A stretch of DNA of 62,603 nt from Gammaproteobacteria bacterium (GCA_030610155.1 JAUWSG010000002.1:1-62603); one strand, 5' to 3'. Shown: positions 4,545-37,988, numbered from the stretch's first letter. Made by a program: numbers and translations. The notes: a model not told the origin generated them from the sequence alone.

Positions 4545-5627
4545 CTATATTTCCACACTTAATATAATTCCACCCCAGAACTGATGACGATTTCCAGCAC
4601 CCTGTTTGATCTCGGCTGTTTGGCCACGCACGCTGTAACTGATTCTAATACCATGAAATATTTCAGCCGTGACACCTAACCACATATCCAGGATTGCATG
4701 ATTTAATTCATCACTATCAAATGTGACCACGCTGTCTTTGGTCTGGCCTTGCAGAAATACGTTATAGGCCCGCAAATGAACACTTGCGCCAGACCAAAAA
4801 TATAGCTCATTTTTCTGCAGCGACTTTAATGTCGCCAATGCAGGCGCAGATTTTTCAGTATATTCCGATGTTTGCGGGTTGAATGTCCACCAGGGAGAGC
4901 GAATTCTTCCCCAACGACCGCTCAGACTGAGTGTGATATCCGTTAAATATCCAATACTGCCTTTAACGGCCGTCTTGATTTCATAACTTTTGTCATCCGT
5001 ATAGTTTGACCATCGAACACGCTGGCCGGACACACTGTAGAGGAATGTCAGTTCTCCACCGTTGGAAATCTGATTATGCCACCCATTTGCTTCATCAAGA
5101 TTAATTATCTTGTGCACAGTGTTTTGTAAATTACCGGCGATATCCAGCCCCAGAACACCCAGAGAAAATGTTGAAATCAACGAACTCTTGTTATTAGTAC
5201 GTACATACTGGCGACTATTGGCCACATAAACCAGGCTGGCATAAGGCCTGTCATCCTGCACTGGAAAGCTTGTAAAAATATCATTGGGCGTAAAACCCGC
5301 TATACCAAATTCATAACTGTGAAAGCGTAAATCTTCTCCTATATTTATCCCTGAGAGACTATCAAAGCCACCCACAATGGCATCCATGGACAACAAGTGT
5401 GTTGCTGCGCTGTCTCCGGAAAAAACAATTGACAGTCCTGCGGTGTAGTCCCTGTCAATACTGGGCGTAATAAACAAATCATTATCCAAATAAAATGCCC
5501 AATCTGTTTTGTTATCGACATTCGCAGGCGCTATATCCTCCTGCGCCGCCATCACCATCGGACCCGGCAAAACCAGAAACAAAGAAAGGAAAAATAAAGG
5601 ACTATTTTTTATTAATTTTAACAACAC
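4545..5627 (-). CDS. lpxR: LpxR-family (DUF2219) outer-membrane lipid A 3-O-deacylase-like protein, copy 1
   Basis: Signal peptide followed by the block DWAFYLDNDLF...DRDYTAG. Clearly paralogous along its length to the ORF at 24076-25263. Confidence 0.75.
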   Translation of the reverse strand: MLLKLIKNSPLFFLSLFLVLPGPMVMAAQEDIAPANVDNKTDWAFYLDNDLFITPSIDRDYTAGLSIVFSGDSAATHLLSMDAIVGGFDSLSGINIGEDLRFHSYEFGIAGFTPNDIFTSFPVQDDRPYASLVYVANSRQYVRTNNKSSLISTFSLGVLGLDIAGNLQNTVHKIINLDEANGWHNQISNGGELTFLYSVSGQRVRWSNYTDDKSYEIKTAVKGSIGYLTDITLSLSGRWGRIRSPWWTFNPQTSEYTEKSAPALATLKSLQKNELYFWSGASVHLRAYNVFLQGQTKDSVVTFDSDELNHAILDMWLGVTAEIFHGIRISYSVRGQTAEIKQGAGNRHQFWGGIILSVEI

Positions 5628-8953: not shown

Positions 8954-10198
8954 TTAAAAATTTATTTTTTCTGCTACATAGACGCGCGACGTTGCCGCCT
9001 TACCCACCCGCTGTATACCCAGGACAAAAGCCGCAATACGCATATCAATATTCTTTTCCTTTGCGACATCACGTACTGCTGCGTATGCCTCGCGCATCTT
9101 GCGAGTAAGTTCCTCATCAACACGATCCTTTTGCCAGCGAAATTGTTGAATATTTTGCGCCCATTCAAAATAACTGACGGTAACACCACCTGCATTCGCC
9201 AAAATATCAGGCACAATGAGCACACCACGTTTCACTAATACCTCATGTGCCGCCGGCGCGGTTGGGCCGTTGGCACCTTCGACGATAATGTCAGCTTTAA
9301 CCTCATTTACATTCTCTTCGGTAATCGCATTTTCCAGCGCAGCAGGAATAAGTACATCTACATCCCAGGTAATAACATCTGAACTATTAAATGCCGTACC
9401 GTCGGGGAATCCTTTAACAGTACGATGTTTAGCTACCCATAAAATCAATGCGCCAATATCGAGCCCGTCATCATTGCTTACGCCGCCATGATGATCGGCA
9501 ACCGCAACAACCTTTGCACCCTGTTCTGCAACCAGGCGTGCCGCATTAGCACCTACGTTACCAAAACCCTGTATAGCAATGCGAATATCTTGCCAGTTCT
9601 TATTTCTATCTTTCAGCGCCTCATCCAGCACGACCATAACACCACGTCCAGTCGCTTCATCCCGCCCTTCAGAACCAAACAACTCCAGTGGTTTACCCGT
9701 CACCACTGCGGGTGAGAAACCGGCATACTTCGAATACTCGTCCATGATCCAACCCATCACCTTGGCGTTGGTATTAACGTCCGGCGCGGGAATATCAACC
9801 GTAGGCCCGATGACTTCTTTGGTGCGCTCAACAAAACGTCTTGTCACTTTATTCAGTTCACTCTCACTCATGGTCTGCGGATCGCAGTTAATTCCACCTT
9901 TTGCGCCACCGAAGGGCACATCAACAATCGCCGTCTTCCATGTCATCAGGTTTGCCAGCGCTGCCGCATGGTCTTCATCCATGGACGGATGATAGCGCAA
10001 GCCACCTTTCATCGGTCCACGCGCATTGTTATGCTGGACCCGAAAGCCCAGATAATGCTGCAATCGACCTTCGTCATCATCAATCACAAGATCGACTTTA
10101 ACCGTGCGAATAGGTGTCCAGATGATTTCTCTGAGTCGTTCCGACAACTTCAGTACATCGGCCGCTTTCTGAAAATAATAGTGACTGTCTTCAAGCAT
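8954..10198 (-). CDS. gdhA: Glutamate dehydrogenase (Glu/Leu/Phe/Val dehydrogenase family)
   Basis: 414 aa. PFGGAKGG catalytic-Lys motif and GFGNVG dinucleotide fold. Confidence 0.9.
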   Translation of the reverse strand: MLEDSHYYFQKAADVLKLSERLREIIWTPIRTVKVDLVIDDDEGRLQHYLGFRVQHNNARGPMKGGLRYHPSMDEDHAAALANLMTWKTAIVDVPFGGAKGGINCDPQTMSESELNKVTRRFVERTKEVIGPTVDIPAPDVNTNAKVMGWIMDEYSKYAGFSPAVVTGKPLELFGSEGRDEATGRGVMVVLDEALKDRNKNWQDIRIAIQGFGNVGANAARLVAEQGAKVVAVADHHGGVSNDDGLDIGALILWVAKHRTVKGFPDGTAFNSSDVITWDVDVLIPAALENAITEENVNEVKADIIVEGANGPTAPAAHEVLVKRGVLIVPDILANAGGVTVSYFEWAQNIQQFRWQKDRVDEELTRKMREAYAAVRDVAKEKNIDMRIAAFVLGIQRVGKAATSRVYVAEKINF

Positions 10199-10294
10199 TT
10201 TTTTACCCTTTCATCCTTAAATAGTGTTTATTAATTAATGTTTGCGACGCCTGATACGAATGGCACATGGTCAAGGAAAAATAAATCAACCCCC

Positions 10295-10329
10295 CCGTCA
10301 TTCCGACTAAAACCATGCCGGAATGACGG
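10295..10329. repeat. gtcattcc-type hairpin (ccgtcattccg-N13-cggaatgacgg)
   Basis: Perfect 11-bp inverted repeat between the yiaV-like stop and the gdh start. Same core as the arms at 26106-26259. Confidence 0.7.
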
Positions 10330-10345
10330 AAAAGTGCTTGGTCAG

Positions 10346-11353
10346 TTAACCACCGATAAAAATGAATTTTTGCCAGCTTTTCATGCGCAAAAGGATGCGG
10401 CGCACAATTGAAAATGCTGCCCAGTTTTCACTGTAAACAGCAACCTCGGCCTTGGCACCGGCAGGCAGCCGATACTCTGACAAATCATCCAGAACCTTTA
10501 TTTGTACTGGCACTCGTCCTTGTTGCGCCCGCGCTGCCGCCATATCGAAATTGATCAACTCGGCACTGGGCATCACCTGGCCCTGCGATATTACCTGAAG
10601 TACTTTAATCACCTCGCCTTTGAACGCACGCCCGGGAATGGCATCAAAGGTGACCTCGGCCTCATTTCCAACTTCGATATTTTGTATCCCATTTTGCGGA
10701 AAGGCCGCATACAGCTCAAGTTCTTCCGCATGTATAAAGATCATGCCTGGTACAACCTGCGGTTGAGATACCAGCGCCATGCCGGGGCGTAATCTTTGCT
10801 GAGTGACATAACCATCTCCCGGTGCACGCACCACGACCTCTTCTTCAAGGTTATATACTGCCTTGTCCAGCCTGGCGCTCACATCCTGATAGTCGGCCAA
10901 TGCAGTTTCATACATAACACGCCATTTTGCTGCCAGTCGTTCAGACTCAAAATTTTTCTTAACCAATTCCAGACTGCGGTCATACTCTTCCTTACTACGA
11001 TCTCGCTCAACCTCAACACGCTTAAGTTGTCCCTTGATACTGGCAACATCATCTTCAAAGGGCTTCGGGTCGAAACGGAACAACACATCGCCCTTTTTTA
11101 TGAGCTGATTCGTTTTAACAGGCACGTCTATCACCCTGCCATTAATACGTGAAAAGATAGGGGTTGTGTAGAAATACGTTCGCGCTTCGCGACTGTATGG
11201 GTGGTTGTAATTCATCACCAGCACAACTAAACCAATACCTAATACACCTATCAGCAATGACGTTGTTGCTGTCCATTTGTTGAGCGGCACTTTAATAACC
11301 TTGAATACAACCCAGAGGATAGCCGCATAAATAATAATTAACAGATCGATCAT
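10346..11353 (-). CDS. yiaV: HlyD-family membrane fusion protein (YiaV-like)
   Basis: 335 aa with an N-terminal TM, a coiled-coil and a barrel-sandwich region. Overlaps the upstream DUF3302 gene by 4 nt, as in E. coli yiaWV. Confidence 0.8.
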   Translation of the reverse strand: MIDLLIIIYAAILWVVFKVIKVPLNKWTATTSLLIGVLGIGLVVLVMNYNHPYSREARTYFYTTPIFSRINGRVIDVPVKTNQLIKKGDVLFRFDPKPFEDDVASIKGQLKRVEVERDRSKEEYDRSLELVKKNFESERLAAKWRVMYETALADYQDVSARLDKAVYNLEEEVVVRAPGDGYVTQQRLRPGMALVSQPQVVPGMIFIHAEELELYAAFPQNGIQNIEVGNEAEVTFDAIPGRAFKGEVIKVLQVISQGQVMPSAELINFDMAAARAQQGRVPVQIKVLDDLSEYRLPAGAKAEVAVYSENWAAFSIVRRILLRMKSWQKFIFIGG

Positions 11354-11691
11354 GATTGCTTACCGTCCTTTTGTTGTGACTCAAGTTCGGAAACACGACC
11401 CTGCAGATCTGTTATTAAGTTTTGCAGCTTCTCACTATTTTCCGGGGCGTCACCCGAACCAAAACCATATCCAGTTTCCGGTTTGTACAGCGTCGCCCAT
11501 ATCCATAAAAATGGCCAGATGGCATGCAGGGTAAACAGACTTAACCAACCACCGTAATGGATCGCATCCTGATGCGGGTGATTGCGTTTTTTTGCCATTT
11601 CGTAGGGGATGTCATGTATATAGATAGCCGCATAGACCAGTATCAGAAACACAACAATCATGACAATCAATGCAAAGTAATCAAGAAACAT
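11350..11691 (-). CDS. yiaW: DUF3302 inner-membrane protein (YiaW-like)
   Basis: MFLDYFAL...HDIPYEMAKKRNHPHQDAIHYGGWLSLFTLHAIWPFLWIWATLY aligns almost residue-for-residue with my recollection of E. coli YiaW. Confidence 0.85.
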   Translation of the reverse strand: MFLDYFALIVMIVVFLILVYAAIYIHDIPYEMAKKRNHPHQDAIHYGGWLSLFTLHAIWPFLWIWATLYKPETGYGFGSGDAPENSEKLQNLITDLQGRVSELESQQKDGKQS

Positions 11692-11760
11692 AAAAAAATC
11701 CTTTTGTTATATTTACACCCAATAAATAGTAATACGTTATTATTATATGTTGATTAATCA

Positions 11761-11964
11761 TTATCTGTCTTTACTTTCTGCCTGGGCTTCCAGCTCAGGA
11801 CTTACGTTTTTATTTTTGATTTTTTCAATCGCAACGGCAACGGGCTTCACTTTACGTATCTCCTGAAATGATTGCGCAAAATAGCCAAAAACCAGGAACA
11901 ACATAATAATAGAAAGCGCCATAGTCAGCTTGAACTGCCAGGGCGGTTGTTGTTTTCTAGCCAT
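11761..11964 (-). CDS. Small single-TM protein, last gene of the rdh-like cluster
   Basis: 67 aa with one hydrophobic helix. Starts 4 nt after the RdhC-like stop. Confidence 0.5.
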   Translation of the reverse strand: MARKQQPPWQFKLTMALSIIMLFLVFGYFAQSFQEIRKVKPVAVAIEKIKNKNVSPELEAQAESKDR

Positions 11965-11968
11965 GCAA

Positions 11969-13198
11969 TTATCCCTTCTTTACCTTGATTGTTTTCGATT
12001 TCGATTTACCGCCCATCATTCGATCTCGTATAGAACGACGAAAACGTACAATTTCATTTAGATACAAACCTACGGGACAAAACAGTCGGCACCAGAAACT
12101 TGGCACAAAAAGAGAACCAATAAGCGCTGCTGGCAATATATACCATTGTATACCCAGGCCCTCCAGCGAGAACATCATCGCAAAAGGTTCATAGGAACCG
12201 AGTGCCGGATGGGTTGAGAGAAAAATCAACATTAACGAAATCCAGCTCAAAAAGAAAATCAGCATGCGTGATTTCCGCTGTAACTCAGGTTTTATCCTGA
12301 GTTTTATGCCACTGAGTTTCTGCATCAAATCCTGTACAACCTTGAACGGACAAATCTGGTGACAGTAAATATTACGACCTACTATCACGACACTGCCGAG
12401 CGCACCAGCCATCATAATCCACCATAATGGGTGCTGCTTCGGAGTGGGTATGTAACCCATGAAAATACTGGCGATATTACCCAGGTTCAGTGACAGGTTC
12501 GCGTAAAAACCAACGAATACCAACGCACCCACCATAACAGCATAGCGCGCATATTTTGCAAATTTGTCTCGTCGGTATACGCCATAAAAGGCCAATACAA
12601 ACAGGGCAAGCAAAATAAATTCATCAACACCAAAACGCCAGCTAGGTTCCTGCCATGTTTGCTCAAGTTTCAGGTGCTGCGCGGCCCCCAAATGCACGGC
12701 TTCACGCACGGCCGCTGTAAAACCAACTGATGACACGGTTGCACCAGATACGGCATCAATGTCATCACCAATAATAAAATTACTGCTGACACTCTCGCCT
12801 GCAAACTGGCGAAAAAATTTCTTGTTATTTATCCTGTCCATAAAAGAAGGCGTTTCTTTGTGGCCAAGCAGAATAATTTCAGACAGGCGCGCGCCGTCTT
12901 CAGTGCGCTTTGCCTTAATGCCTACAATAAGCGGTCCACCATAACCGAGGCCTTCGGACAGAACGACCACTTCAGGTAACTGTTCACCGTCCTTGCTAAT
13001 ATTGTAAACAATGGGCAGTTCTCGATTAAGCTGTGAACGCTCGAATTCGACATCGGGCATTTGCGATTTCAACAGTGTCTCGTAATCTGTTTCTACGGCA
13101 ATTTGCCCGATAATGAATGCGACAACAAGCGAAGCCCAGGCGAATGCCTCGACTATTCTTCCCCAGGGAAATGTATCAATATTATTATCTGACGACAT
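11969..13198 (-). CDS. rdhC: RdhC/PceC-like membrane flavoprotein (NosR/NirI-like FMN_bind + CX3CP protein)
   Basis: 409 aa. N-terminal TM, then a periplasmic FMN_bind motif (SGATVSS), then multiple TMs carrying CHQICP and CRLFCP. No C-terminal ferredoxin domain, which fits PceC rather than NosR or NapH. Confidence 0.75.
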   Translation of the reverse strand: MSSDNNIDTFPWGRIVEAFAWASLVVAFIIGQIAVETDYETLLKSQMPDVEFERSQLNRELPIVYNISKDGEQLPEVVVLSEGLGYGGPLIVGIKAKRTEDGARLSEIILLGHKETPSFMDRINNKKFFRQFAGESVSSNFIIGDDIDAVSGATVSSVGFTAAVREAVHLGAAQHLKLEQTWQEPSWRFGVDEFILLALFVLAFYGVYRRDKFAKYARYAVMVGALVFVGFYANLSLNLGNIASIFMGYIPTPKQHPLWWIMMAGALGSVVIVGRNIYCHQICPFKVVQDLMQKLSGIKLRIKPELQRKSRMLIFFLSWISLMLIFLSTHPALGSYEPFAMMFSLEGLGIQWYILPAALIGSLFVPSFWCRLFCPVGLYLNEIVRFRRSIRDRMMGGKSKSKTIKVKKG

Positions 13199-13238
13199 AA
13201 TGTCATTAAAAATTAAACAGCTATTTATTATAAATTAA

Positions 13239-13526
13239 TTAATTACCCTGCTTTTCAAACTCGGGCGCGATCAGGTAACGCCAGATCAGAATCATCATAA
13301 TTACGCCGGGGAAACAGAAAAAAATCAATGCCATTGCACCTGACTGCGAAATACCTTCAAGAAACGAAGCACCCGCCCAACCAATACCAAACAATATTGA
13401 GAGGACGCCGGTAATCATCCCCGCCCAAATATACCATTGCAGCCTGACCTTTACTGACAGCCACGCCAATGCAAATACGCTTAAGGTAAACAGTACGCCC
13501 ATCACAAACCATTGCATCTGTTCCAT
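13239..13526 (-). CDS. rdhB: RdhB-like three-helix membrane anchor
   Basis: 95 aa with three hydrophobic helices. Starts 11 nt after the rdhA stop. Size, topology and position match dehalogenase B subunits; no sequence motif proof. Confidence 0.6.
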   Translation of the reverse strand: MEQMQWFVMGVLFTLSVFALAWLSVKVRLQWYIWAGMITGVLSILFGIGWAGASFLEGISQSGAMALIFFCFPGVIMMILIWRYLIAPEFEKQGN

Positions 13527-13537
13527 TTTAGTCTCCG

Positions 13538-15052
13538 CTAGCTGATATTTGATGTGCCGATGTTATTCTTCATGCCAGTATTGACGCGCATGCCCTCACC
13601 CGTTTTCCAGAATTTTATAACCTTTTTCGGATCGTTAGTATGCCCATAACCAAAAGCGGGATGTGATAACGCCATTGAGGCATGCAGAAATTTAGGCATA
13701 TAGGGATTTATCGCCATAATAAACCAGTGGTGCCAGAAATCGGGTTCATTAAAAGTACAACTGGCAATGCAGGCACCACAGGCGCTGCCATTTTCAACCC
13801 AGAAGTTGTAACACTTCTTGGCGTCGCTGTAGAATTTCCTGATACCAAGGTGGTTGTTCCAGGTGTAACCCGGCTCATCCTTAAACTCATAGGTTGGTTT
13901 AAAACCGTAACCACCATCTTCAGACTCCATCAGGGGAATAGCGTCAGCCGGGCAAGCTTCAGCGCATTGACCGCAACTGAGGCAGAATTCAGTCATGCCC
14001 CAGGTGTGTGGCTGATCATATTCGACAAACTCAAAATCGGTATACACTTTCATGATGCGTACACGCGGACCCACACCCGGCGCAAGTAATGCACCGTTAC
14101 GCCCACCTTCGCCAAGGCCGGCCATAATGGCGTATGGCACACTGCTGCCGAGATCATTACCTGCACCTACCGCATGATAACCCATGCCCTTAAGGAACTT
14201 TGCCATTTGCGTGGCTTTGACACCCATTTGCGAGTAGCCATCCGCCGCAGTGCCATCAGCGGTCCATGCAGGCGCAGTACCAATACAGTCATAATCCATC
14301 GAGGCAAGCATCACGATGACTGTTTTAGGCTCAAAAGGAAAATCTTTTTCCCAGGACAGTTCTTTCTCGCTATCTATGTCATACAGAGGGTCATAATCCC
14401 AGCGCTTGTCACGTTTGGCGATGCCACATTTTACAGCACCAAATACACGTGCCGCACTCTTGATGGCGTCACTGGCATGCTTCTTACTCTCAAATTTGTA
14501 TTGTTCTTTCTCAACGTCAGACTGGTCCCAGGTATTGAATGGCGTGTCTGGTTGTAAGTTGGCAGAGCCACGGCTGCCGGCAAGATTCAGCGGTTCCCAG
14601 CCGGCTTTCTGCAAGGCCCGATCCTTTTGCGTATAACCTGGTTTGCTGTTATCCCATGGTTTGTTGTACATATCGATGATGCCATTGACCCAGTCAAACT
14701 CCTTGTTCTGTAAACGATTGTACTGTTCGTTACGCTCAGGGTGTTTCTTGTTAAGTGCTTTGCTGGAAACAAAGTTCAGAATCACGTCACGCTGATCTTT
14801 GGGCTTAAACACACTCTCGTCTATCACTGGATACTCGTCTGAAACCTTGCCTTGCAGTGAATGAATACCGACCCCGTAAGCTGCGCCACCACCAAGTAAG
14901 GCGGTGCCACCACCGACTGCCGCACGCTTGAAAAACAGTCGCCGACCCGGATCTTCAAGTAGTTCAGACGGGCCCGGAATGGATGACTTCTCCACCGATA
15001 CATTATTGTCTTGTGCTTCGTTGTCTTTTTTCTTGTCAGATTCATTTGTCAT
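13538..15052 (-). CDS. rdhA: Reductive dehalogenase catalytic subunit (RdhA family, Tat-exported, corrinoid/2x[4Fe-4S])
   Basis: Twin-arginine leader GRRLFFKRAAVGGG. C-terminal CLSCGQCAEACP and CGACIASCTF motifs. Internal blocks ...IMAGLGEGGRNG...GPRVR... are typical of RdhA. ATG at 15050-15052 is preferred because ggag lies 8 nt upstream. The ORF track's GTG at 15061 is the alternative start. Confidence 0.85.
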   Translation of the reverse strand: MTNESDKKKDNEAQDNNVSVEKSSIPGPSELLEDPGRRLFFKRAAVGGGTALLGGGAAYGVGIHSLQGKVSDEYPVIDESVFKPKDQRDVILNFVSSKALNKKHPERNEQYNRLQNKEFDWVNGIIDMYNKPWDNSKPGYTQKDRALQKAGWEPLNLAGSRGSANLQPDTPFNTWDQSDVEKEQYKFESKKHASDAIKSAARVFGAVKCGIAKRDKRWDYDPLYDIDSEKELSWEKDFPFEPKTVIVMLASMDYDCIGTAPAWTADGTAADGYSQMGVKATQMAKFLKGMGYHAVGAGNDLGSSVPYAIMAGLGEGGRNGALLAPGVGPRVRIMKVYTDFEFVEYDQPHTWGMTEFCLSCGQCAEACPADAIPLMESEDGGYGFKPTYEFKDEPGYTWNNHLGIRKFYSDAKKCYNFWVENGSACGACIASCTFNEPDFWHHWFIMAINPYMPKFLHASMALSHPAFGYGHTNDPKKVIKFWKTGEGMRVNTGMKNNIGTSNIS

Positions 15053-15130
15053 CGTCTTCACTCCGTATATGATATGTTTACCGGACAGTCATGACTTAAA
15101 GCCAGATCAATAATGCCGTGACTGTTGCTG

Positions 15131-15325
15131 AAGCCCGGAAACATTTTTCAATACCTGGTTATCAATTTATGTATATCTTATTGCACTCAGCGTAACAACC
15201 ACATAAAAATAAGCATGAAAAGTTCAATATTAATCAGCATTTGGCCTGATATGTTTACCATCCCGGGAGCCTTATTTTCCGAGTATTTTTGTCAGGATTG
15301 CCTTAAGGTGCGCAAGAAAAAATTT
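15131..15325 (-). pseudogene. Decayed fragment paralogous to the 5' leader and an internal part of the cNMP/HDOD gene (6203-7471)
   Basis: 15231-15325 aligns by eye with 7497-7590, the leader upstream of the HDOD gene. 15131-15230 aligns with about 7110-7215, for example tgaagcccggaaacatt and caatacctggtt are identical. The frame reads ...IDNQVLKNVSGLQQ against WIDNQVLDNVSGLQQ. The Trp codon is replaced by TAA, and the start codon plus about 85 codons are deleted. Confidence 0.6.
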
Positions 15326-15541
15326 GAAAAATAACTATAATTAAATTCAGCTAAATGCGAATTCTCATCAGCACTTTTTATAGCAAACGCTAATCTTCAT
15401 CAGTGCTTTTTATGCCTGTAACGATGCTGGCAACAGCTAAGTTTTTTTTATCGCCAATCAAAAAAATTCATTTTCAACACCAGTCAATCTTGGTTATACT
15501 TATATTAATACATCAGCATAAACTAATAATAGGCAGAGCAT

Positions 15542-15856
15542 ATGAATTTATCAAGCATCCTTGTTATCACGCCATCTGGTCACCTTGGACCAACTATCGA
15601 CGCACTTAACAAACTGGAGGGCGTGGAAGTTCATGTTAGTGAAGAACAGAGCGGACGTATTATCGCGACACAGGAAGCTGAATCCATAGAGGCAGAAGTT
15701 GAAGGCATTAAACGTATAAAAGCCCTGCCTGGCATTTTGTTTGCAGAAATGGTTTTTCATTATTTTGAAGATGAGAGTAATGCACTACCAGTCGAGCTAC
15801 CAGTAGAGCTGGACAACAATCAGAGTGTCTGCCGTACCGAATCAGCTTGCAACTAG
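15542..15856 (+). CDS. napD: NapD, periplasmic nitrate reductase maturation chaperone
   Basis: 104 aa, ...HVSEEQSGRIIATQEAES...IKRIKALPGILFAEMVFH.... Lies immediately upstream of napA. Confidence 0.8.
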   Translation: MNLSSILVITPSGHLGPTIDALNKLEGVEVHVSEEQSGRIIATQEAESIEAEVEGIKRIKALPGILFAEMVFHYFEDESNALPVELPVELDNNQSVCRTESACN

Positions 15857-15903
15857 CTCCGTACTATCATTGATTTTTACACTAAAGGCTCAGGAGAATT
15901 TTC

Positions 15904-18651
15904 ATGGATATTAACCGACGTCAATTTATTAAAACCGGACTGGTTGCAGCAACCGCTGCTAATATCGGCCTGACCCTCACGGACGCGGCCTGGGCAGAAG
16001 CAAAAACATTTTCAAAAGACTGGCGCTGGGACAAGGCGGTATGTCGTTTTTGTGGTGTTGGTTGTGGTATCAAGGTCGCCACGCATAATAAAAAAATTGT
16101 CGCGACCATGGCAGACCCGGATGCCCCGGTAAACCGCGGACTGAACTGCATCAAAGGTTATTTTAATGGCAAGATCCTTTATGGAAAGGACCGCCTCACA
16201 CAACCACTGTTGCGCATGAAAAATGGCAAGTTTGATAAACAGGGAAAATTTGCCCCTGTCAGCTGGGACCGGGCCTTTGATGAAATGGAAAAGCAACTTA
16301 AAAAAACCCATAAAGAGTTAGGCCCTAGCGGGCTGGCGATTATGGGCTCGGGTCAATATACCATTCAGGAAGGTTATGCGGCCGTAAAATTAATGAAAGC
16401 CGGTTTACGCAGTAACAACATTGATCCCAATGCACGTCATTGTATGGCATCGGCCGTGGCCGGTTTTATACAGACATTTGGTATCGATGAGCCTTCCGGC
16501 AACTATGACGACATCGAACATACTGACACCATGGTATTGTGGGGCGCCAATATGGCAGAGATGCATCCCATCTTGTGGACACGTATTGTTGATCGTCGCA
16601 AAAAGCATGACAAAACCCGCATTGTTAACCTCAGCACCTTCAGCAATATGTCCTCTGACATGGCTGACCTGGAAATAATATTTAAACCACAAACCGATCT
16701 CGCCATACAAAATTATATTGCCAGGGAAATCGTCAAGCGCGACGCAGTCAACTGGGACTTTGTTAAAAAACATTGTGTATTCGCAACCGGTCCATATGAC
16801 ATCGGTTATGGTATGCGCGCGACAGACAAGTATGCTTATAAAGCGGAAAAAGACACACAGCAAAAAGAAAACATCAAAATCCTGGATAAATACGAAGCTA
16901 TCGGGCAACGTAAAAAAACCGGCGAAAGTATTAAACAAAACAATCGTACTTCAGCCGGCAAACACTGGTTAATTCAATTTGAAGAATTCAAAAAAGGCGT
17001 CGAACCGTACACCCTGGATTTTGTCGCCGAACTGAGCAAGGGCGATCCGGACGAATCGCTGGACGCCTATAAAGTCAAACTGAAACAGCTTGCTGACTGG
17101 TATATCGAATCCGGTCGCAAAGTTGTTTCGTTCTGGACCATGGGTTTTAACCAGCATCAACGCGGCACCTGGGTCAATGAGCAGGCCTATATGAACCACT
17201 TGTTATTAGGCAAACAGGCACACCCCGGAAATGGTGCGTTCTCGTTAACAGGCCAACCCTCTGCCTGTGGCACCGCACGCGAAGTCGGCACCTTCTCACA
17301 TCGTCTTCCAGCCGATATGGTTGTGGCCAACCCAAAACATCGGGCACGTGCAGAAGATATATGGAAATTACCCGCCAATACGCTTAACCCGAAACCCGGT
17401 AGTCATATCACCAAAATCATGCGTGACCTGGAGGACGGTTCCGTTAAGTGGTTATGGGTCCAGGTATGTAACCCTTTTCAAGGCACTGGTAATGCCAATC
17501 ACTGGATAAAGGCCGCACGCGAAAAAGATAATTTTGTTATTGTCTCCGACGCGTATCCGGGCGTCTCCACTAAAGTAGCTGATCTCGTTTTACCTGCCGC
17601 AATGATATTTGAAAAATGGGGCGGCTACGGCAATGCGGAAAGACGCACACAATTGTGGCGTGAACAGGTACCTCCCCCGGGCGATGCACGCAGTGATGTC
17701 TGGCAAATGCTTGAATTTTCCAAGCGCATAAAAATCAAGGACGTCTGGACACAACAAAAGTTACCCGGACTCAAATCAGCGGGTTTTGTTGACGGCCAGT
17801 TACCGGATGTAATGGCAGAAGCCAAAAAAATGGGGTATTCGCCTGACAGTACACTCTATGAAGTTTTATTTGCCACCGCAGAAGCCAAAAAAATGAAATA
17901 CGCCACTGACCCGGTGACAAAAGGACATGATAATCATACCGTGACCTCACTCGGCGAAGACTGGTTTCCGGAAAAAGCCTTGTTTGAAGAATACGCCATA
18001 TTCGGGCGTGGCCATAAACACGATCTTGCACATTTCGACGTATATTATCGCGACGATGTACGCGGTCTTAAATGGCCTGTTGTCAACGGCAAGGAAACTC
18101 ACTGGCGATTTAATGAAAAATATGACCCTTATTGCAAGAAAGGCACTGAATATGACTTTTACGGCCCGGCATTAAAGGCACTGCCGAGCGGTAATATCGA
18201 CAAGATAACCAACAAGGAAAAAACCAAACTGACGGGTAAAGCCAAGATTTTTTTCCGGCCTTATGCTGCACCCGCTGAGGAGCCTGACAAGAACTATAAT
18301 ATGTGGCTTGTTACCGGCCGTGTATTGGAACACTGGCACAGTGGCACAATGACCCGGCGAGTACCTGAATTACACCGGGCGGTACCCAATGCATTAATTT
18401 ATATGCATGCAAAAGATGCGAAATCACGCGGCCTGAAAAATAGAGACATTGCCTGGCTGGAGTCGCGACGCGGCAAAATCAAGGTCATGGTAGACACTAA
18501 AGGTGACCGTAGTCGTATGCCCAAAGGCTCGGTATTCGTCCCCTGGTTTGACGAGGCTGTTTTTATCAACAAGGTGACACTGGATACCACCTGTCCTATA
18601 TCCAAACAAATGGACTTTAAAAAGTGTGCCGTCAAGGTTTACAAGGCATGA
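15904..18651 (+). CDS. napA: Periplasmic nitrate reductase catalytic subunit NapA (long form, 915 aa)
   Basis: Tat leader [21 protein letters not shown] Fe-S motif. Long colinear identity with remembered E. coli NapA ([58 protein letters not shown]). Confidence 0.95.
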
Positions 18652-18659
18652 AGGAGAGA

Positions 18660-19136
18660 ATGATGAAAAATACCATTTCAGTCTTTATCGTGACACTATT
18701 TTTTACCCTGCCAGGAATGGCTCTGTCAGGAAATGCTGTTAACGATAAGGATATGGGCTTAAGCAAAACCAGTGTATTTGACACACCCACACCGGAGCCA
18801 TTTAAATACAGTGACAAATTCCCCGGTACCAGTCAGGTCTTGCCACGCGCATACCCCGATGCTCCCCCGCAGATACCGCACAATATTGATAGCTTTAAAC
18901 CTGTCACTGCAAAAAGCAATATGTGCATAGGTTGTCATAACAACCCCTCCATGCGCGGCAAGACGGTGAAGGGGATGGCCACTCCCATGCCGGAAAGCCA
19001 CTACACAGACCGCCGTCATGCGCCGGACAAGGTAACCGATCAATTAATCGGTGCGCGTTATGTTTGCACCCAATGTCATGTACCGCAGTCTGACGCGAAG
19101 GAATTGGTAGACAATACATTTGACGATAAAAAATAG
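18660..19136 (+). CDS. napB: NapB, dihaem cytochrome c subunit of periplasmic nitrate reductase
   Basis: Two CxxCH motifs (CIGCH, CTQCH) and a signal peptide. Start placed at ATG 18660, which follows aaggagag, rather than the ORF-track 18624 that overlaps napA. Confidence 0.9.
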   Translation: MMKNTISVFIVTLFFTLPGMALSGNAVNDKDMGLSKTSVFDTPTPEPFKYSDKFPGTSQVLPRAYPDAPPQIPHNIDSFKPVTAKSNMCIGCHNNPSMRGKTVKGMATPMPESHYTDRRHAPDKVTDQLIGARYVCTQCHVPQSDAKELVDNTFDDKK

Positions 19137-19156: not shown

Positions 19157-19189
19157 AAAAACCCTGCCTTTATGGCAGGGTTTTTTTTA
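19157..19189. terminator. Bidirectional rho-independent terminator (napB / lysR convergent)
   Basis: aaaccctgcc-tttat-ggcagggtt hairpin flanked by an A-run and a T-run. Overlaps the last codons of the LysR gene. Confidence 0.75.
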
Positions 19190-20069
19190 CACAACGGCAT
19201 AAAATATCGGCCAGTTGTTGGCAAGCCGGGCCCACATTACCCGGTTGACCAAAGACCAGATATAAATGAGCGAAATACACCTGGCCTTCAGTCAGGGGTA
19301 ACAACTTAAGCTCATCGCTATCAAGCCTGGCTTGAACCTGATGCCGGGGCAACCAGCCAAACCCCAGCCCCGCCGTAACCGCCTCCATAGCCGTATCCAG
19401 ACTGGTCACCGTCCAGCGATGCTCAGCCCCCAACCAGCCACTGTCGATGTTTTGCGTCAAACCTGAATCACGTATGACAACTTGCAGTTCTTTACTTAAA
19501 TCAGTGATATTTATTGCGCGCTCCAGTTGATGCAAAGGGTGACCGGGATGCGCAACGGCAACAAACTCGACTTCCAGTAGAGGGTCACCCAAAAACGCCG
19601 GAGGCACACTGCCAGTGATCACCAGGTCGGCTGTACCCGACTGCAATGCTTCAGTTGCACCTGAAAGGACGACTTCTTTTAATTGAACACGTGTCCCTTC
19701 ACTCACAGGCACGAATTGTTTTAATGCCTGCATCAACATCGACGTCGGATAGGCTTCATCCACGACAAGATTAATTTCAGCTTCGCGCCCCTGACTCAAG
19801 GTGGCAGCAAGTTGCCCGATTTCAGTCGCGTCTTTTATTAATTGCCGGGAGCGCGCCAACAGCACTTCACCGGCTTCAGTCAGCTGTGCCTTGCGTCCCT
19901 GCACTTCAAGCAATTCAATGCCGAGTAGTTCTTCCAGCCGGGAAACCGCGTAGTTAATTGTTGATTGACTACGAAACATCTGTTTGGCTGCCTGGGCATA
20001 ACCACCCCCATCGACAACCGCCTGCAACGCCCGCCACTGATCCAGCGTGCCATAACCTGCATTTTTCAC
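19170..20069 (-). CDS. LysR-family transcriptional regulator (YhaJ-like context)
   Basis: 299 aa with an N-terminal wHTH (…QSTINYAVSRLEELLGIELL…). Divergent from the doxX-yqjG-pirin genes. Confidence 0.9.
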   Translation of the reverse strand: MKNAGYGTLDQWRALQAVVDGGGYAQAAKQMFRSQSTINYAVSRLEELLGIELLEVQGRKAQLTEAGEVLLARSRQLIKDATEIGQLAATLSQGREAEINLVVDEAYPTSMLMQALKQFVPVSEGTRVQLKEVVLSGATEALQSGTADLVITGSVPPAFLGDPLLEVEFVAVAHPGHPLHQLERAINITDLSKELQVVIRDSGLTQNIDSGWLGAEHRWTVTSLDTAMEAVTAGLGFGWLPRHQVQARLDSDELKLLPLTEGQVYFAHLYLVFGQPGNVGPACQQLADILCRCVKKTLP

Positions 20070-24075: not shown

Positions 24076-25263
24076 TTACAAAGCTCTACTGATGATAAAA
24101 CCACCCCAGATCGGGCTCCGCGAACCAGGGCCTGTTTTAATTTCAGAGGTTTGTCCTCGCAAAAAATAACTCATTCTCAATCCGCTATCCAATTCCTTTG
24201 TCACACCCATCCAGAGCTCACCAACAACATGGTTCAGCTCATCACTCTTGTACGTCACGACACTGTCCCTGAATTGCCCTTGAAGAAAAACGTTATATGC
24301 CCTCAAGTGCACACTCAATCCGGTCCAGAAATAAAATTCATTTTTTGCTTTCGTGCTTGTTTTTGCTAAAGGTGAACCCTTTTCAGCATAAGCCGCATTC
24401 TGTGGATTAAAACTCCACCAGGGCGTACGAATTCTGCCGAATCGACCACTAATGCTATAGGTATAATCCGTCAGATAACCAACATTCAGGTTACTCGCTG
24501 TTTTAATTTCATAATTTGAACTCTCATCAACATAATCTGCCCAATGAACAGACTGCTTTGAAACACTGTAACGAAATGTCAATTCACCGCCATCAGAAAT
24601 CTGATTACCCCAACCTTGCGCCTCGTTAGCATCAAATACTTTGTGTATTAAATTCTGAAACTCACCGGCAATATCCAGACCCAGAACACCGATACTTAAA
24701 GAAGTAATCAATGAAGAGCGATTCTTGTAATCTACATGCTGTCGTGTATTTGAAAGATAAAACAAACTAGCATAAGGTCGATCATCGAAAATCGGCTCAC
24801 TAATCGTTATATCATCGGGCGTAAATGTCGTTAATCCAAATTCAAAACTGTGTAACAAGCTGTCATATTTTTTTCCTAAACCAAATAAATTATTAATACC
24901 ACCCAATATAGGGTCAACCGATGCAATGTAATGCGCTGTTTTTGAACCAGACAAGGTAAATGCCAATCCACCGGTATAGTCACGGTCTCTGCCAGGAGAG
25001 GCAAACAAATCATTATCTATGTAAAATGCCCAGCTGGTTCGGTCCTTTTCCTGTTGCTGCTCATCAAGTGGTTCACGCTGAGGCCGTTTCTCGTCTTCAA
25101 TCAAAGCCGCGAGTAACAACTTTTCCTGCTGAACTTGTACACCCGACAATGGCTCCTCAACATGACTGGCTAACACATCCTGGTTAACTAAAAACATCAC
25201 AGCCGCAAGCAACGTCAATAACGCGCCTTTTACTGAGTTGTTTTTAATTGTGTTTACCAACAT
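24076..25263 (-). CDS. lpxR: LpxR-family (DUF2219) outer-membrane lipid A deacylase-like protein, copy 2
   Basis: 395 aa with a signal peptide. SWAFYIDNDLF...DRDYTGG. Colinear with copy 1 but has an extra acidic Q/E-rich N-terminal segment. Confidence 0.75.
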   Translation of the reverse strand: MLVNTIKNNSVKGALLTLLAAVMFLVNQDVLASHVEEPLSGVQVQQEKLLLAALIEDEKRPQREPLDEQQQEKDRTSWAFYIDNDLFASPGRDRDYTGGLAFTLSGSKTAHYIASVDPILGGINNLFGLGKKYDSLLHSFEFGLTTFTPDDITISEPIFDDRPYASLFYLSNTRQHVDYKNRSSLITSLSIGVLGLDIAGEFQNLIHKVFDANEAQGWGNQISDGGELTFRYSVSKQSVHWADYVDESSNYEIKTASNLNVGYLTDYTYSISGRFGRIRTPWWSFNPQNAAYAEKGSPLAKTSTKAKNEFYFWTGLSVHLRAYNVFLQGQFRDSVVTYKSDELNHVVGELWMGVTKELDSGLRMSYFLRGQTSEIKTGPGSRSPIWGGFIISRAL

Positions 25264-28858: not shown

Positions 28859-29596
28859 TTAAGGTAGTCTACCGGCGGCCACCATACGATTGAAAAGAAT
28901 ATTAGGGGAGACCCAGACAATCAGATCATCAATCACGCCCTGAGGGTTAGTCATTGGGTCTGCATTATCAGTGTAGACATGGTCAACAAACACACTATTG
29001 GTATTCGTATTCTCGATCTCATTATTTGACGCCGCATTTAAACCATTTTTGCCAACGGACAATATGATCGCCGGGATATTAGTGGCCACATTTCTGCCCC
29101 CGGCCTCATTAACAATCGTCATATCGCCTACTGAACATAATTCAAAGGATACCCCTGGCGTCGCGGTACCACAGCCTGTGCCATCTATCCCATCAGCGAA
29201 ACTCCCCGTCACTCGATATCGGTAGCGGTTGCCCCAGCTGTCCAGTTCGACCGTCCCCAGCGTGACCCAGGGAAAGTTACCCTCTACGGAGACACAAACA
29301 CCCGTCCCCGGGTTTCGGTCCTCCTGACCATCATTGGCCGGACCCTGTCCACCGCCGTCGGTTTTGTCCGGGCAGGGCAGGCGGCCATTTACCAGCGCAA
29401 AGCCAATAATCGCCTGCTTTAGTTCTTCCAGTGATTTTTCAGTGTCATTTCGTCGTGTATTTTCAATTTGCGTGGACAAGGGCATCAATAAACCGCCCAG
29501 TAACAAGCCAACGATGACCAGCACAATCGCTATCTCAACTAATGTGAATCCTTTGGCATGTTTTTTCATATCAGTCCGTGCTCTCCTGGAATGCAT
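28859..29596 (-). CDS. Type IV pilin / pseudopilin-like protein with prepilin cleavage-methylation motif
   Basis: ...KKHAKG|FTLVEIAIVLVIVGLLLGGLL is a class III signal with Glu+5. A likelier start is the internal ATG at 29569 (leader MKKHAKG). The mature part is unusually large at about 220 aa. Confidence 0.85.
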   Translation of the reverse strand: MHSRRARTDMKKHAKGFTLVEIAIVLVIVGLLLGGLLMPLSTQIENTRRNDTEKSLEELKQAIIGFALVNGRLPCPDKTDGGGQGPANDGQEDRNPGTGVCVSVEGNFPWVTLGTVELDSWGNRYRYRVTGSFADGIDGTGCGTATPGVSFELCSVGDMTIVNEAGGRNVATNIPAIILSVGKNGLNAASNNEIENTNTNSVFVDHVYTDNADPMTNPQGVIDDLIVWVSPNILFNRMVAAGRLP

Positions 29597-29653
29597 ATAT
29601 TTCTATCCCGCTATGCGCTCTGAATCTCAAAATTTTAAACTCAATATAATCGA

Positions 29654-31171
29654 CTACCTGCTCATCGCGCCCGTTGCCATACCGGTACCACTGTTACCCA
29701 TACCACCACCCATGCCCATCCCGCTACCGCCAACCGAGGTCACAGGTAATACCACATCATTAAACGCATTGCTTGCCGGACCACTGATAAAGGCATTATC
29801 AGCTGTCTGCGCATTGGCACCTTCCAGATAATTATTGATATTTGCTTTTTCTGCATTTGTATCACGTGATTGGCCTGCCAGTTTGCGACCACTGATAAAA
29901 ATCACAGCGGCTTCATTAGCACCGTCCAACGTCAATCTCGCAGCCGGGAGTGTTGCGGTTCCATTCGGCGCAAAATCCGCATCAACACCCACAAAAACCA
30001 TTTCTTTCCATGCAGGCCACCACCACCATTCCCAATTCAAATCCGCTACGACTGTGTCATTAAAACAGCGAATATTTGATTGTGGAAGAGGCGGGCTGGG
30101 CTCATCTATCCAGGAAGTTGTCATGGCCGGATCAGAAACCGCCGTATCACTGAGTCCATCCAGATTATTAATGTTTCCCGCACCGATCTCATTGGATACA
30201 CGACCATAAAGCTGGCCATTAGCATCATTGTAGCCCAGGGGGTTTGTCGCACTGGCCCAGGGGAATTTTCCATTATTTGTCGCCTGTGACTGATAGGCCT
30301 GCAGACAATTGACAACCCGATTGGCCACCCATTCATCCATTCGACGATAAACCATAGAAAAATCAGCCGGTGTAATGGCAAGCAGGGCATCGTTAAAAAC
30401 AATATTACCTTCAGCATCCCTGACTATCGCGGCATTAACAAAAACAGACGGTAAGCTTGCTGGCAAAGGATCACTGCCGGGACTGAGGCCCGCAGCAGCG
30501 ATATCGAAACCTGTCGCATTATTAATGTCCCCCAGGACTTCAAGATAATTCGCCGCATTATTACCTGTGTCACCCGGCGTCATACTGCCACATTCAGTTC
30601 TTGTCCCACGGGTAAAACTACGGTCTTGCGGCGCAAACAATTGACCCGCAGCGAAAACGATCGCAATGGCCTGCTTGTTCGGCGTAGCGCCAATAACCGT
30701 TGCGCCTGCCTGATTCTCAACTAATAACAACCCATCGGAATCACTGGTCAAGGCCAACTTGGGATTGTTTTTATAGGTGCCCGAGACGACATACCACAAA
30801 CATTCCCCGGCACCATCCCGCAGCGGCGGCAAATCCAGCGTCCGCCAGGGTAAACGCCCGATCACACTCTCATTAGCCGAACCACAAGCACCATCAGCGG
30901 TGCCATCACCATCCAGGTCTGGACAAGGTAAATACCCCTGGGGCTGGCCAGCATGTTGATCAGCATAAGTTAATGCATGGCCGATCAAAGCGTCCTTTGC
31001 TCGGGCAAGGGCATCAACCGTTTGCTGGTTTTGTAAAAGCTTGCCGGAATTTTTATTCAAGCTGGTGAGCAACAGGTAGGCCCCGCCTAAAACAATAATG
31101 GTAAGCAGTATCAGTAATGCGGCGCCTGTCTGATTTGACTTTGCTTGAAATGTTGGCGCGCACATATTCAT
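29654..31171 (-). CDS. Large pilin-like / minor-pilin-like protein (505 aa) lacking Glu+5, with a Gly/Met-rich C-terminal tail
   Basis: N-terminal hydrophobic helix QTGAALLILLTIIVLGGAYLL. Shares the ...LIG.AL...LPCPD...G.(L/F)PW.TL... module with the adjacent pilin. Ends in GGSGMGMGGGMGNSGTGMATGAMSR. Confidence 0.7.
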   Translation of the reverse strand: MNMCAPTFQAKSNQTGAALLILLTIIVLGGAYLLLTSLNKNSGKLLQNQQTVDALARAKDALIGHALTYADQHAGQPQGYLPCPDLDGDGTADGACGSANESVIGRLPWRTLDLPPLRDGAGECLWYVVSGTYKNNPKLALTSDSDGLLLVENQAGATVIGATPNKQAIAIVFAAGQLFAPQDRSFTRGTRTECGSMTPGDTGNNAANYLEVLGDINNATGFDIAAAGLSPGSDPLPASLPSVFVNAAIVRDAEGNIVFNDALLAITPADFSMVYRRMDEWVANRVVNCLQAYQSQATNNGKFPWASATNPLGYNDANGQLYGRVSNEIGAGNINNLDGLSDTAVSDPAMTTSWIDEPSPPLPQSNIRCFNDTVVADLNWEWWWWPAWKEMVFVGVDADFAPNGTATLPAARLTLDGANEAAVIFISGRKLAGQSRDTNAEKANINNYLEGANAQTADNAFISGPASNAFNDVVLPVTSVGGSGMGMGGGMGNSGTGMATGAMSR

Positions 31172-31180
31172 CCGTCGAAC

Positions 31181-31705
31181 TTATTTTTTTATTTTATAAC
31201 TATCACTGATTTTACCTGTGACAGGATCAAGAATTTGACCGGGCTTGAGCGCGACCCTTTTATTCAGGCTGGAGAGCGTAATAGTGACTGAATCACTTTT
31301 AATGTTCCGGCTAACTATCTCAACACCCGCTTCAGGAAAATTTGTTTTAAAATTACTCTTACCATTTACCCATACTGTATTTTTACCGTCTCCACGCACC
31401 ACAACACCATTTATCTCAAGACCTTTTTTTGCAACAGCTACACTTTTTGTCGGTTTTTTTCCTGCCCGTTTATGATGAGGATGATGGCGCATTTTATCGA
31501 GCACTGCGCGCTGCTCAGGCGTTGTAAAAAATCGCCCAAATGAATCTGCATGCGCCGTATTTACCAGGACTGCCGCTACACTGCATATAAACATCACAAT
31601 GATTGAGCGGCCTGTTTTCCTTACCAGTTTCATTATGACTGCTCTATATCCATACTTCCTCTGCAATAAATAGTCTATCGTCATAATAATAACGCCTGAC
31701 TTCAA
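31181..31705 (-). CDS. Secreted/periplasmic pilus-assembly protein (MshK/PilP-like position)
   Basis: 174 aa. An internal Met25 gives a good signal peptide (MKLVRKTGRSIIVMFICSVAAVLVNTAHA). The ORF-track TTG start overlaps the upstream stop as TTGA. Assignment is by position only. Confidence 0.55.
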   Translation of the reverse strand: MKSGVIIMTIDYLLQRKYGYRAVIMKLVRKTGRSIIVMFICSVAAVLVNTAHADSFGRFFTTPEQRAVLDKMRHHPHHKRAGKKPTKSVAVAKKGLEINGVVVRGDGKNTVWVNGKSNFKTNFPEAGVEIVSRNIKSDSVTITLSSLNKRVALKPGQILDPVTGKISDSYKIKK

Positions 31706-35140: not shown

Positions 35141-35143
35141 CGT

Positions 35144-37977: not shown

Positions 37978-37988
37978 ACTGATACCTT

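Follow-up and report, generated by a model that had tools for sequence, protein, structure and literature searches.

The closest described relatives of the genes considered here are the pceABCT genes of Desulfitobacterium hafniense TCE1. In the PceA2B2 complex, a menaquinol:organohalide oxidoreductase solved by cryo-EM (PDB entry 8q4h), the loop between helices 2 and 3 of the RdhB subunit carries an EXE motif formed by E61 and E63, and active-site roles belong to Y337 and R396 of D. hafniense PceA (DhPceA) as well as to Y246 and R305 of the Sulfurospirillum multivorans enzyme (SmPceA) (PMC10624902). The RdhC protein was defined by Buttet et al. in 2018 by six transmembrane helices, a [S/T]G[A/S]TX[S/T] motif, two CX3CP motifs and the lack of the C-terminal Fe-S clusters of NosR and NapH; they also catalogued clusters with rdhC or rdhABC from Vibrio, Photobacterium, Ferrimonas and Shewanella sediminis (PMC5928378). 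A PceA of S. sediminis is cited as characterised. Here we analyse a 62,603-nucleotide (nt) stretch of DNA from Gammaproteobacteria bacterium (GCA_030610155.1, JAUWSG010000002.1:1-62603), called the window throughout, which carries at 11761-15061, on the minus strand, a four-gene operon of the rdhABC/pceABC type. Because such clusters in marine Gammaproteobacteria had been catalogued earlier, the operon type is already known, and a preliminary description of the window that presented the gammaproteobacterial host as unusual had overstated the point.

The catalytic subunit gene rdhA, identified by reading of the open reading frame (ORF), profiles and fold, spans 13538-15061 when read from a GTG (507 amino acids, aa) and 13538-15052 when read from an ATG (504 aa). 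It is followed after 11 nt by rdhB (13239-13526; hydropathy, family profile and synteny) for a 95-aa three-helix membrane anchor, after a further 40 nt by rdhC (11969-13198; PF04205, PF12801, motifs and hydropathy) for a 409-aa membrane flavoprotein, and 4 nt later by orf67 (11761-11964; hydropathy, homologues and a family hidden Markov model, HMM) for a 67-aa single-helix protein. These four ORFs, and all the motifs that the preliminary description had read in them, were found where it had placed them. Since their homologues occur in the same gene order in many independent contigs, the ORFs are not a product of chance, and the operon is confirmed as real.

The GTG at 15061 falls within the Shine-Dalgarno sequence of the ATG at 15052, which lies 8 nt after GGAG and gives a protein of the same length as the closest database homologues. 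Among the related loci (L001, L002 and so on), L002 and L008 share GGAGTGAAnACnATG as the sole conserved element upstream of rdhA, and a close variant, GGAGTAAAGAGCATG, occurs in L003. Because the Shine-Dalgarno sequence and ATG are conserved and the remaining upstream DNA is not, the ATG at 15052 is most likely the true start, which would correct the GTG at 15061. Counted from this ATG, the signal region (14867-15052, direct reading) consists of an acidic and Lys-rich n-region of ~36 aa, which is indeed as long as had been proposed, then RRLFFK and a Gly/Ala-rich h-region. The arginine pair forms residues 37-38 in the 504-aa numbering used below and is invariant in 39 homologues. RRLFFK fits the RRxFxK twin-arginine translocation (Tat) signal of respiratory-type enzymes, and export is predicted from this motif. 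In the closest relatives the length of the n-region is kept and its sequence is not, and it is shorter in Photobacterium paralogues. AlphaFold predicts the n-region to be disordered, residues 1-55 have a predicted local distance difference test (pLDDT) score below 50, and by hydropathy no segment of the signal region reaches the transmembrane threshold.

The RdhA sequence contains GRRLFFKRAAVGGG, CLSCGQCAEACP and CGACIASCTF. Two profiles had been put forward in the preliminary description as a check on its family, and the protein answers to one of them: NCBIfam TIGR02486 is barely reached, the score being 160.9 bits and the curated cut-off 160.35, over profile positions 72-314 only, and PF13486, the N-terminal dehalogenase domain, gives no match at E<=0.1. 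More distant relatives (P0101, P0107 and P0108) carry precomputed PF13486 assignments, and the N-terminal half that PF13486 does not recognise is still confident in the AlphaFold2 model and superposes on PceA. Because Pfam recognises only its ferredoxin motifs (Fer4_7 and Fer4, within 13757-13984, with eight invariant cysteines), RdhA is a divergent member of the family. A phmmer search of the PDB with RdhA gave 8q4h_A PceA at 2.2e-56, 4uqu PceA at 7.5e-36 and NpRdhA at 1.9e-15. The AlphaFold2 model, built from 39 homologues, has a pLDDT of 78.7 (>90 over most of residues 80-350) and a predicted template modelling score of 0.81. Foldseek placed this model nearest to 8q4h_A (E 1.7e-28, template modelling score, TM, 0.68), with TM 0.56-0.70 for SmPceA, 0.49-0.58 for NpRdhA (query-normalised) and 0.25-0.29 for QueG. 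Thus, as the preliminary description had expected, the protein is far closer to PceA than to QueG by both sequence and fold. QueG itself (26.7 bits against a cut-off of 200, TM <0.3) and a generic ferredoxin are ruled out by profile and fold scores, and the cytoplasmic catabolic NpRdhA type is ruled out by the Tat leader, the RdhB partner, the absence of a reductase domain and a match weaker than that to PceA.

The residues of the active site point the same way. In an HMMER alignment Y276, N302 and R335 of the window RdhA fall on Y246, N272 and R305 of SmPceA and are invariant in 12 homologues. Both cluster motifs are present, the first as CLSCGQCAEACP and the second as C417/C428/C431/C435, and all eight cysteines are invariant and align with the motifs of both PceA structures.

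The product of rdhB has three hydrophobic segments by hydropathy, and its gene directly follows rdhA in all 19 RdhA-containing loci (L001-L019). Direct phmmer searches with the 95-aa and 67-aa proteins against PDB, Pfam and NCBIfam gave no match. A profile of 12 RdhB homologues had the PceB chain 8q4h_C as its top PDB match (E 0.0078), covering positions 3-83 of 95 against PceB 6-87 of 89. Homologues at 67-79% identity hold a precomputed PF27193 VcrB assignment, and a local Pfam search returned PF27193 for none of the 12 aligned homologues. The profile comparison suggested for the 95-aa ORF in the preliminary description therefore does reach PceB, with homologues in the VcrB family. In the RdhB loop E57 is invariant and corresponds to PceB E61, and the position of E63 is occupied by I, V or Y. 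Moreover, in an alignment against the residues given for PceA (PMC10624902), H495 and Y520 of the quinone pocket correspond to H445 and Y472 of the window RdhA, both invariant. Because H445, Y472 and E57 are conserved while three pocket residues differ, the quinol-site architecture is plausibly retained but remodelled.

The window RdhC has six hydropathy segments, SGATVS at 151-156 (with T154), CHQICP at 279, CRLFCP at 370 and four cysteines in total, so that, read from its sequence, it shows every feature of the RdhC definition (PMC5928378). Both CX3CP motifs are invariant in 32 homologues. Pfam finds FMN_bind (PF04205, 2.8e-11) and Fer4_5 (PF12801, 1.4e-11), and the protein is built of an N-terminal helix, a periplasmic domain binding flavin mononucleotide (FMN) and a NapH/NosR-like module of five helices. 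Its matches to RnfG, NosR and NapH are partial and far under the family cut-offs. The FMN domain resembles RnfG/NqrC by sequence and, as the only matched part of a low-confidence model, also by fold. The NosR-like character claimed for the 409-aa ORF is hence borne out, along with its RdhC features. Genes for ApbE, the flavin transferase on which covalent FMN attachment depends, adjoin the module of rdhABC and small ORF in L016 (2842-3720), L017 (9415-10440) and L018 (5437-6462), a neighbourhood consistent with covalent attachment of FMN to RdhC.

A paralogous locus offers a further view of RdhC. In Photobacterium sagamiensis JAMM2327 scaffold_45 (L015:9480-12329) a 949-aa ORF joins RdhC, with its FMN_bind and Fer4_5/CX3CP parts, to Flavodoxin_1, FAD_binding_1 and NAD_binding_1, that is, to a diflavin NAD(P)H reductase of the CysJ/CPR-like type; the ORF is located between rdhAB, on its upstream side, and an orf67 homologue. 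A literature search for fusions of RdhC with flavodoxin or NADPH modules found no relevant description. The fusion suggests that electrons cross the membrane through the RdhC module, which would connect cytoplasmic NAD(P)H with a periplasmic flavin. The window RdhC has no such reductase fusion, and by analogy with NapH its likeliest donor would be quinol (PMC5928378).

The fourth gene, orf67, encodes a protein with one helix between a basic N-terminus and a conserved tail, GYFxQSFxEIRKVKPVxVAIE. None of its 30 close homologues has a name or a Pfam family. With the family HMM an orf67 homologue was found directly after rdhC in each of the 13 related loci for which that sequence is available, so that the single-helix ORF seen 4 nt after rdhC in the preliminary description is a real gene. 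These 13 include L009, L010 and L012, in which the pair of rdhC and small ORF is found ~2.4 kb upstream of rdhAB, the reductase fusion locus L015, and L016, in which the small ORF had escaped the gene caller. Searched against 1.84 billion protein representatives, the profile returned only 53 proteins, almost all of 44-111 aa, which indicates that the family is small and specific. One of the 53, and the only RdhC-orf67 fusion among them, is P0292 (L020:402-1589, ENA ERZ23486778 scaffold_57441), in which RdhC continues in frame, across a basic linker of ~30 aa, into a homologue of the orf67 protein; the RdhC part is 61% identical to window residues 101-404 and the orf67 part is 51% identical. 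The only frame break in L020 falls on a stretch of Ns, and the sequence across the fusion junction is uninterrupted. The predicted topology agrees with a pairing, the C-terminus of RdhC being cytoplasmic and basic and the orf67 tail being expected to face the periplasm by the FMN domain. From the gene linkage and the single fusion we infer that the orf67 protein is a partner subunit of RdhC. A bolder proposal, which we consider less likely than not, is that orf67 is an obligatory and previously undescribed subunit of the RdhC complex, adding a seventh helix and a periplasmic tail, and that RdhC-orf67 forms an autonomous module for electron input or cobalt reactivation fed by varied donors, quinol here and NAD(P)H in the Photobacterium paralogue. 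If true, it would answer the long-debated questions of what RdhC does and how low-potential electrons reach respiratory dehalogenases.

Together, profile, sequence, fold, motif and synteny agree with the core of the preliminary description, namely a Tat-type RdhA with an RdhB anchor and an RdhC flavoprotein, and neither QueG nor a cytoplasmic catabolic enzyme. The region probably encodes a periplasm-facing, membrane-bound corrinoid/Fe-S reductive dehalogenase complex, a quinol:organohalide oxidoreductase resembling PceA2B2, with RdhC-orf67 as accessory module. The word 'respiratory' is used here for the architecture of the enzyme as predicted from its genes. A, B and C belong to the RdhA, RdhB and RdhC families; the electron path, the quinone type, the substrate and the energy coupling are inferred. 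Corrinoid and the Fe-S clusters would be inserted into RdhA in the cytoplasm, before the Tat system exports the protein. By analogy with PceA2B2 it would dock on RdhB, where two amphipathic helices at the C-terminus of RdhA and helices 2-3 of RdhB would make up the quinol site. Electrons would reach Co(I) by way of the two clusters, and Co(I) would remove a halogen from what is probably a natural marine organohalide. RdhC and the orf67 protein would form a separate membrane module with the flavinylated domain and the orf67 tail on the periplasmic side, and this module would either pass quinol electrons to RdhA or maintain the cobalt in its reduced state, in the way that NosR serves NosZ. The latter, NosR-like role in maintenance or reactivation is equally compatible with the data and fits the low abundance of PceC (PMC10624902). 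The whole module would be inherited vertically in an uncultured marine gammaproteobacterial lineage, with no functional tie to the neighbouring napDAB genes.

Several results weigh against this reading. RdhA passes TIGR02486 only at the threshold and lacks the PF13486 match, RdhB resembles PceB weakly (E 0.0078), and the EXE motif of the window RdhB is incomplete and reads E-G-I. Three of the five compared polar residues of the quinone pocket are replaced (K489 by E439, R499 by A450 and D515 by S466/H467). The structure model of RdhC is of low confidence (pLDDT 57), the RdhC-orf67 fusion comes from one metagenome scaffold, and the 62-kb window holds no cobalamin gene, no ApbE and no regulator adjacent to the operon. 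PceC was ~50-fold scarcer than PceA, and an obligatory role of RdhC in electron transfer has been doubted (PMC10624902).

The threshold score with TIGR02486 and the silent PF13486 could also be taken as signs of a corrinoid/Fe-S reductase of the RdhA superfamily that works on a non-halogenated substrate, by QueG-like chemistry or some other periplasmic reduction, and JGI labels of the close homologues do alternate between 'reductive dehalogenase' and 'epoxyqueuosine reductase'. We consider this highly improbable, since the PceA-type Tyr/Asn/Arg set is invariant, the resemblance to PceA far exceeds that to QueG in both sequence and fold, a tRNA substrate cannot be reconciled with Tat export and an RdhB anchor, and RdhB, RdhC and ApbE make up the classic set of rdh accessories. 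Less easily set aside, although on balance we doubt it, is the view that the enzyme is a genuine periplasmic dehalogenase that does not conserve energy and serves in detoxification, in co-metabolism of natural organohalides or as an electron sink. Dehalogenation not coupled to growth has been discussed for facultative marine Gammaproteobacteria, and the activity of S. sediminis on tetrachloroethene is reportedly low, with support of growth said not to have been demonstrated. The host has other respiratory options in napDAB, no dedicated regulator stands beside the operon, B12 genes are missing from the window, and an RdhC-diflavin reductase fusion as in L015 would send electrons outward at the expense of the proton-motive force. 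The window RdhC, in contrast, has no NAD(P)H module, the A-B architecture with its quinone-site His and Tyr and the RdhB Glu matches the design of a quinol:organohalide oxidoreductase, and the module is so strongly conserved and so abundant that its function is presumably under selection.

The preliminary description had further proposed that the dehalogenase genes are co-regulated with the divergent genes napD-napA-napB (15542-19136, plus strand; napD, PF03927 4.4e-19, from 15542; napB, PF03892) across a shared control region. The napA ORF, assigned by position and size, is unusually long at 915 aa and has its own twin-arginine leader, RRQFIK. In its full form this idea makes rdh and napDAB one co-regulated unit of anaerobic respiration on the shared 480-nt region, with RdhC perhaps acting as the quinol dehydrogenase of NapAB. 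The divergent arrangement speaks for it, as does the NapH membrane module that RdhC possesses (PMC5928378); napC, napGH and napF are all missing from the 62-kb window, so that the electron donor of NapAB must be encoded elsewhere. The intergenic region (15053-15541, 480-489 nt) moreover holds repeats that are not random. Two exact minus-strand copies of GGTAAACATATCA lie at 15070-15082 and 15247-15259, with no other exact copy in the window, and this 13-mer has 8 window matches at <=2 mismatches against 2.0 expected. One copy abuts the rdhA ribosome-binding site, and a related inverted copy is found at 15134-15144. A 29-nt tandem direct repeat at 15353-15413 is 79% identical with 32-nt spacing. 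Such repeats may be operator sites.

Against such a unit stands the comparison with other loci. None of those with upstream sequence (L002, L003, L004, L008 and L016-L019) has nap beside rdhA, the place being taken by DUF6580, ApbE, a small ORF without a family or other genes, whereas rdhC-orf67 always accompanies the rdh genes. Neither the upstream DNA beyond the Shine-Dalgarno sequence and ATG nor its repeats are conserved, and the 13-nt repeat GGTAAACATATCA is absent from 19 related loci. No FNR/CRP-type box with <=2 mismatches was found in 15053-15541, and window-wide counts of such boxes equal chance. The claim of co-regulation with napDAB is thus not sustained; we treat the adjacency of rdh and nap as incidental and regard a joint unit as very unlikely, though with a small residual probability.

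The related loci also place the operon in its lineage. Orthologues with more than ~80% identity come only from uncultured organisms, that is, metagenome-assembled genomes (MAGs) labelled Chromatiales, Arenicellales or Gammaproteobacteria and many metagenome contigs. The closest cultured homologue is the RdhA of Photobacterium sagamiensis, 78% identical, and paralogous clusters with 50-78% identity are present in Photobacterium, Psychromonas, Thalassotalea, Ferrimonas and Shewanella. Searches gave 623 RdhA and 712 RdhC matches, counted as cluster representatives at 90% identity, and the module is apparently abundant in metagenomes. In L019 the genes stand in the order of the window, rdhA-B-C-small ORF-DUF3302-HlyD-GDH, and DUF6580 takes the upstream place that napDAB holds in the window; L002, L003, L005 and L008 share parts of it. 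Because the synteny with GDH and DUF3302-HlyD is kept across contigs and the GC content of the region is unremarkable, the module is, judged from the sequence, stably resident in the chromosome of an uncultured lineage of marine Gammaproteobacteria, and on the same grounds a recent horizontal acquisition is unlikely.

Downstream of orf67, on the same strand, lie genes for a DUF3302 small membrane protein (11350-11691; PF11742, 8e-36) and a HlyD-family adaptor (10346-11353; HlyD_D23 and RND_mfp matches). This pair adjoins rdh genes in L003, L005, L017, L018 and L019, in two different arrangements and orientations. The adaptor has weak full-length similarity (1.3e-17) to AaeA, an adaptor of p-hydroxybenzoate efflux, and a role of DUF3302-HlyD in the export of aromatic products is conceivable. 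On the other side of rdhA, the two closest relatives have, 10-20 nt upstream, a gene for an integral membrane protein of DUF6580 with 173-184 aa (L008:3092-3646 and L019:7237-7758). A literature search on DUF6580 gave no relevant result, and a part in the uptake of corrinoid or substrate is pure speculation. A different small ORF of 87-117 aa, with neither a transmembrane helix nor a Pfam or NCBIfam family, stands just upstream of rdhA in L003 (1604-1957) and L004 (3260-3523), in the same direction, and in L017 (5521-5805) and L018 (1543-1827), where it is divergent; it is absent from the window. L002 is a 487-kb metagenome contig on which rdhA occurs twice in tandem (10001-13021), with products that share 83% and 71% identity with the window RdhA, ahead of a single set of rdhB, rdhC and small ORF, and GDH.

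The absences noted in the preliminary description, of an adjacent regulator, an RdhT-type chaperone and a corrinoid gene, hold within the window. No CprK, MarR or two-component regulator adjoins the operon, the nearest regulator being a LysR gene at 19170-20069 that is divergent from a DoxX-GST-pirin group, and the 62-kb window contains no PceT-like chaperone, no cobalamin riboswitch or other Rfam family, and no relics of ApbE or DUF6580. In P. sagamiensis (L001:1-8062) the rdhAB pair that encodes the 78% identical RdhA has no adjacent rdhC, and ~2 kb upstream of this pair a cbi/cobalt-transport operon, preceded by a cobalamin riboswitch (RF00174, 96.7 bits), runs in the divergent direction. 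This neighbourhood is a circumstantial sign that the clade depends on corrinoid.

Elsewhere in the window, a 401-aa ORF at 54957-56162 combines an N-terminal fatty-acid desaturase with a C-terminal part of an ISL3-family transposase, which suggests the insertion of an insertion sequence into, or read-through from, a desaturase gene. A cluster like those for MSHA pili and type II secretion occupies 28859-39683 (N-methyl pilin, T2SSF, MshE-type ATPase, TPR protein and secretin). It includes four ORFs without a Pfam match (29654-31171, 31181-31705, 31702-32316 and 32313-33938), the first and last of which also have no NCBIfam match. Two paralogous genes for the outer-membrane protein LpxR (lipid A 3'-O-deacylase) are found within 20 kb of each other, at 4545-5627 and 24076-25263.

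What appears to be new at this locus and its relatives is the conserved small ORF with its single RdhC fusion and the RdhC-reductase fusion of the paralogue, and likewise the variable accessory genes (DUF6580, ApbE and the small ORF without a family) and the uncultured nitrate-reducing host lineage. An uncultured, apparently abundant, nitrate-reducing lineage of marine Gammaproteobacteria thereby joins the likely cyclers of natural organohalogens. Moreover, with the pair of RdhC and small protein, their occasional fusion and the paralogue in which RdhC is joined to an NAD(P)H reductase, the disputed function of RdhC becomes approachable in tractable relatives such as Photobacterium.

Compared with NosR and NapH, the window RdhC has the CX3CP membrane module of both proteins and, like NosR, a periplasmic domain that binds FMN, but it scores 44 bits against NosR (cut-off 1000) and 33 against NapH (cut-off 213) and lacks the C-terminal 2x[4Fe-4S] domain. 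With the RdhC family of Buttet et al. (PMC5928378) it has in common the three motifs, the six-helix topology, the location in rdh clusters and the lack of the C-terminal Fe-S clusters; in the window clade the 67-aa partner ORF, which the available portion of that paper does not mention, comes after rdhC in every case, and the host lineage, unlike the hosts of the clusters listed there, is known only from uncultured MAGs. The S. multivorans PceA (4uqu/4ur3) shares the fold (TM 0.56-0.70), the residues Y246/N272/R305 and the Tat-type periplasmic destination, and is more distant than DhPceA. The Sulfurospirillum system has accessory genes of the pceMN type instead of rdhC. From the D. hafniense system the window RdhA differs in its overall identity of ~27%, the missing PF13486 match, a much longer signal n-region and the three changes among the five polar quinone-pocket residues compared, and its RdhB has E-G-I instead of EXE. 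The operon differs from pceABCT in having no PceT chaperone gene, an extra gene for a small membrane protein after rdhC, and a gammaproteobacterial host. Nevertheless, PceA2B2 of D. hafniense TCE1 is the best sequence and fold match of the window RdhA, and the two systems share the Tat leader, two [4Fe-4S] motifs, the catalytic Tyr and Arg, the His and Tyr of the pocket, a PceB-like three-helix B subunit that keeps the first Glu of the loop, and a C gene with FMN-binding and CX3CP motifs placed after A and B.

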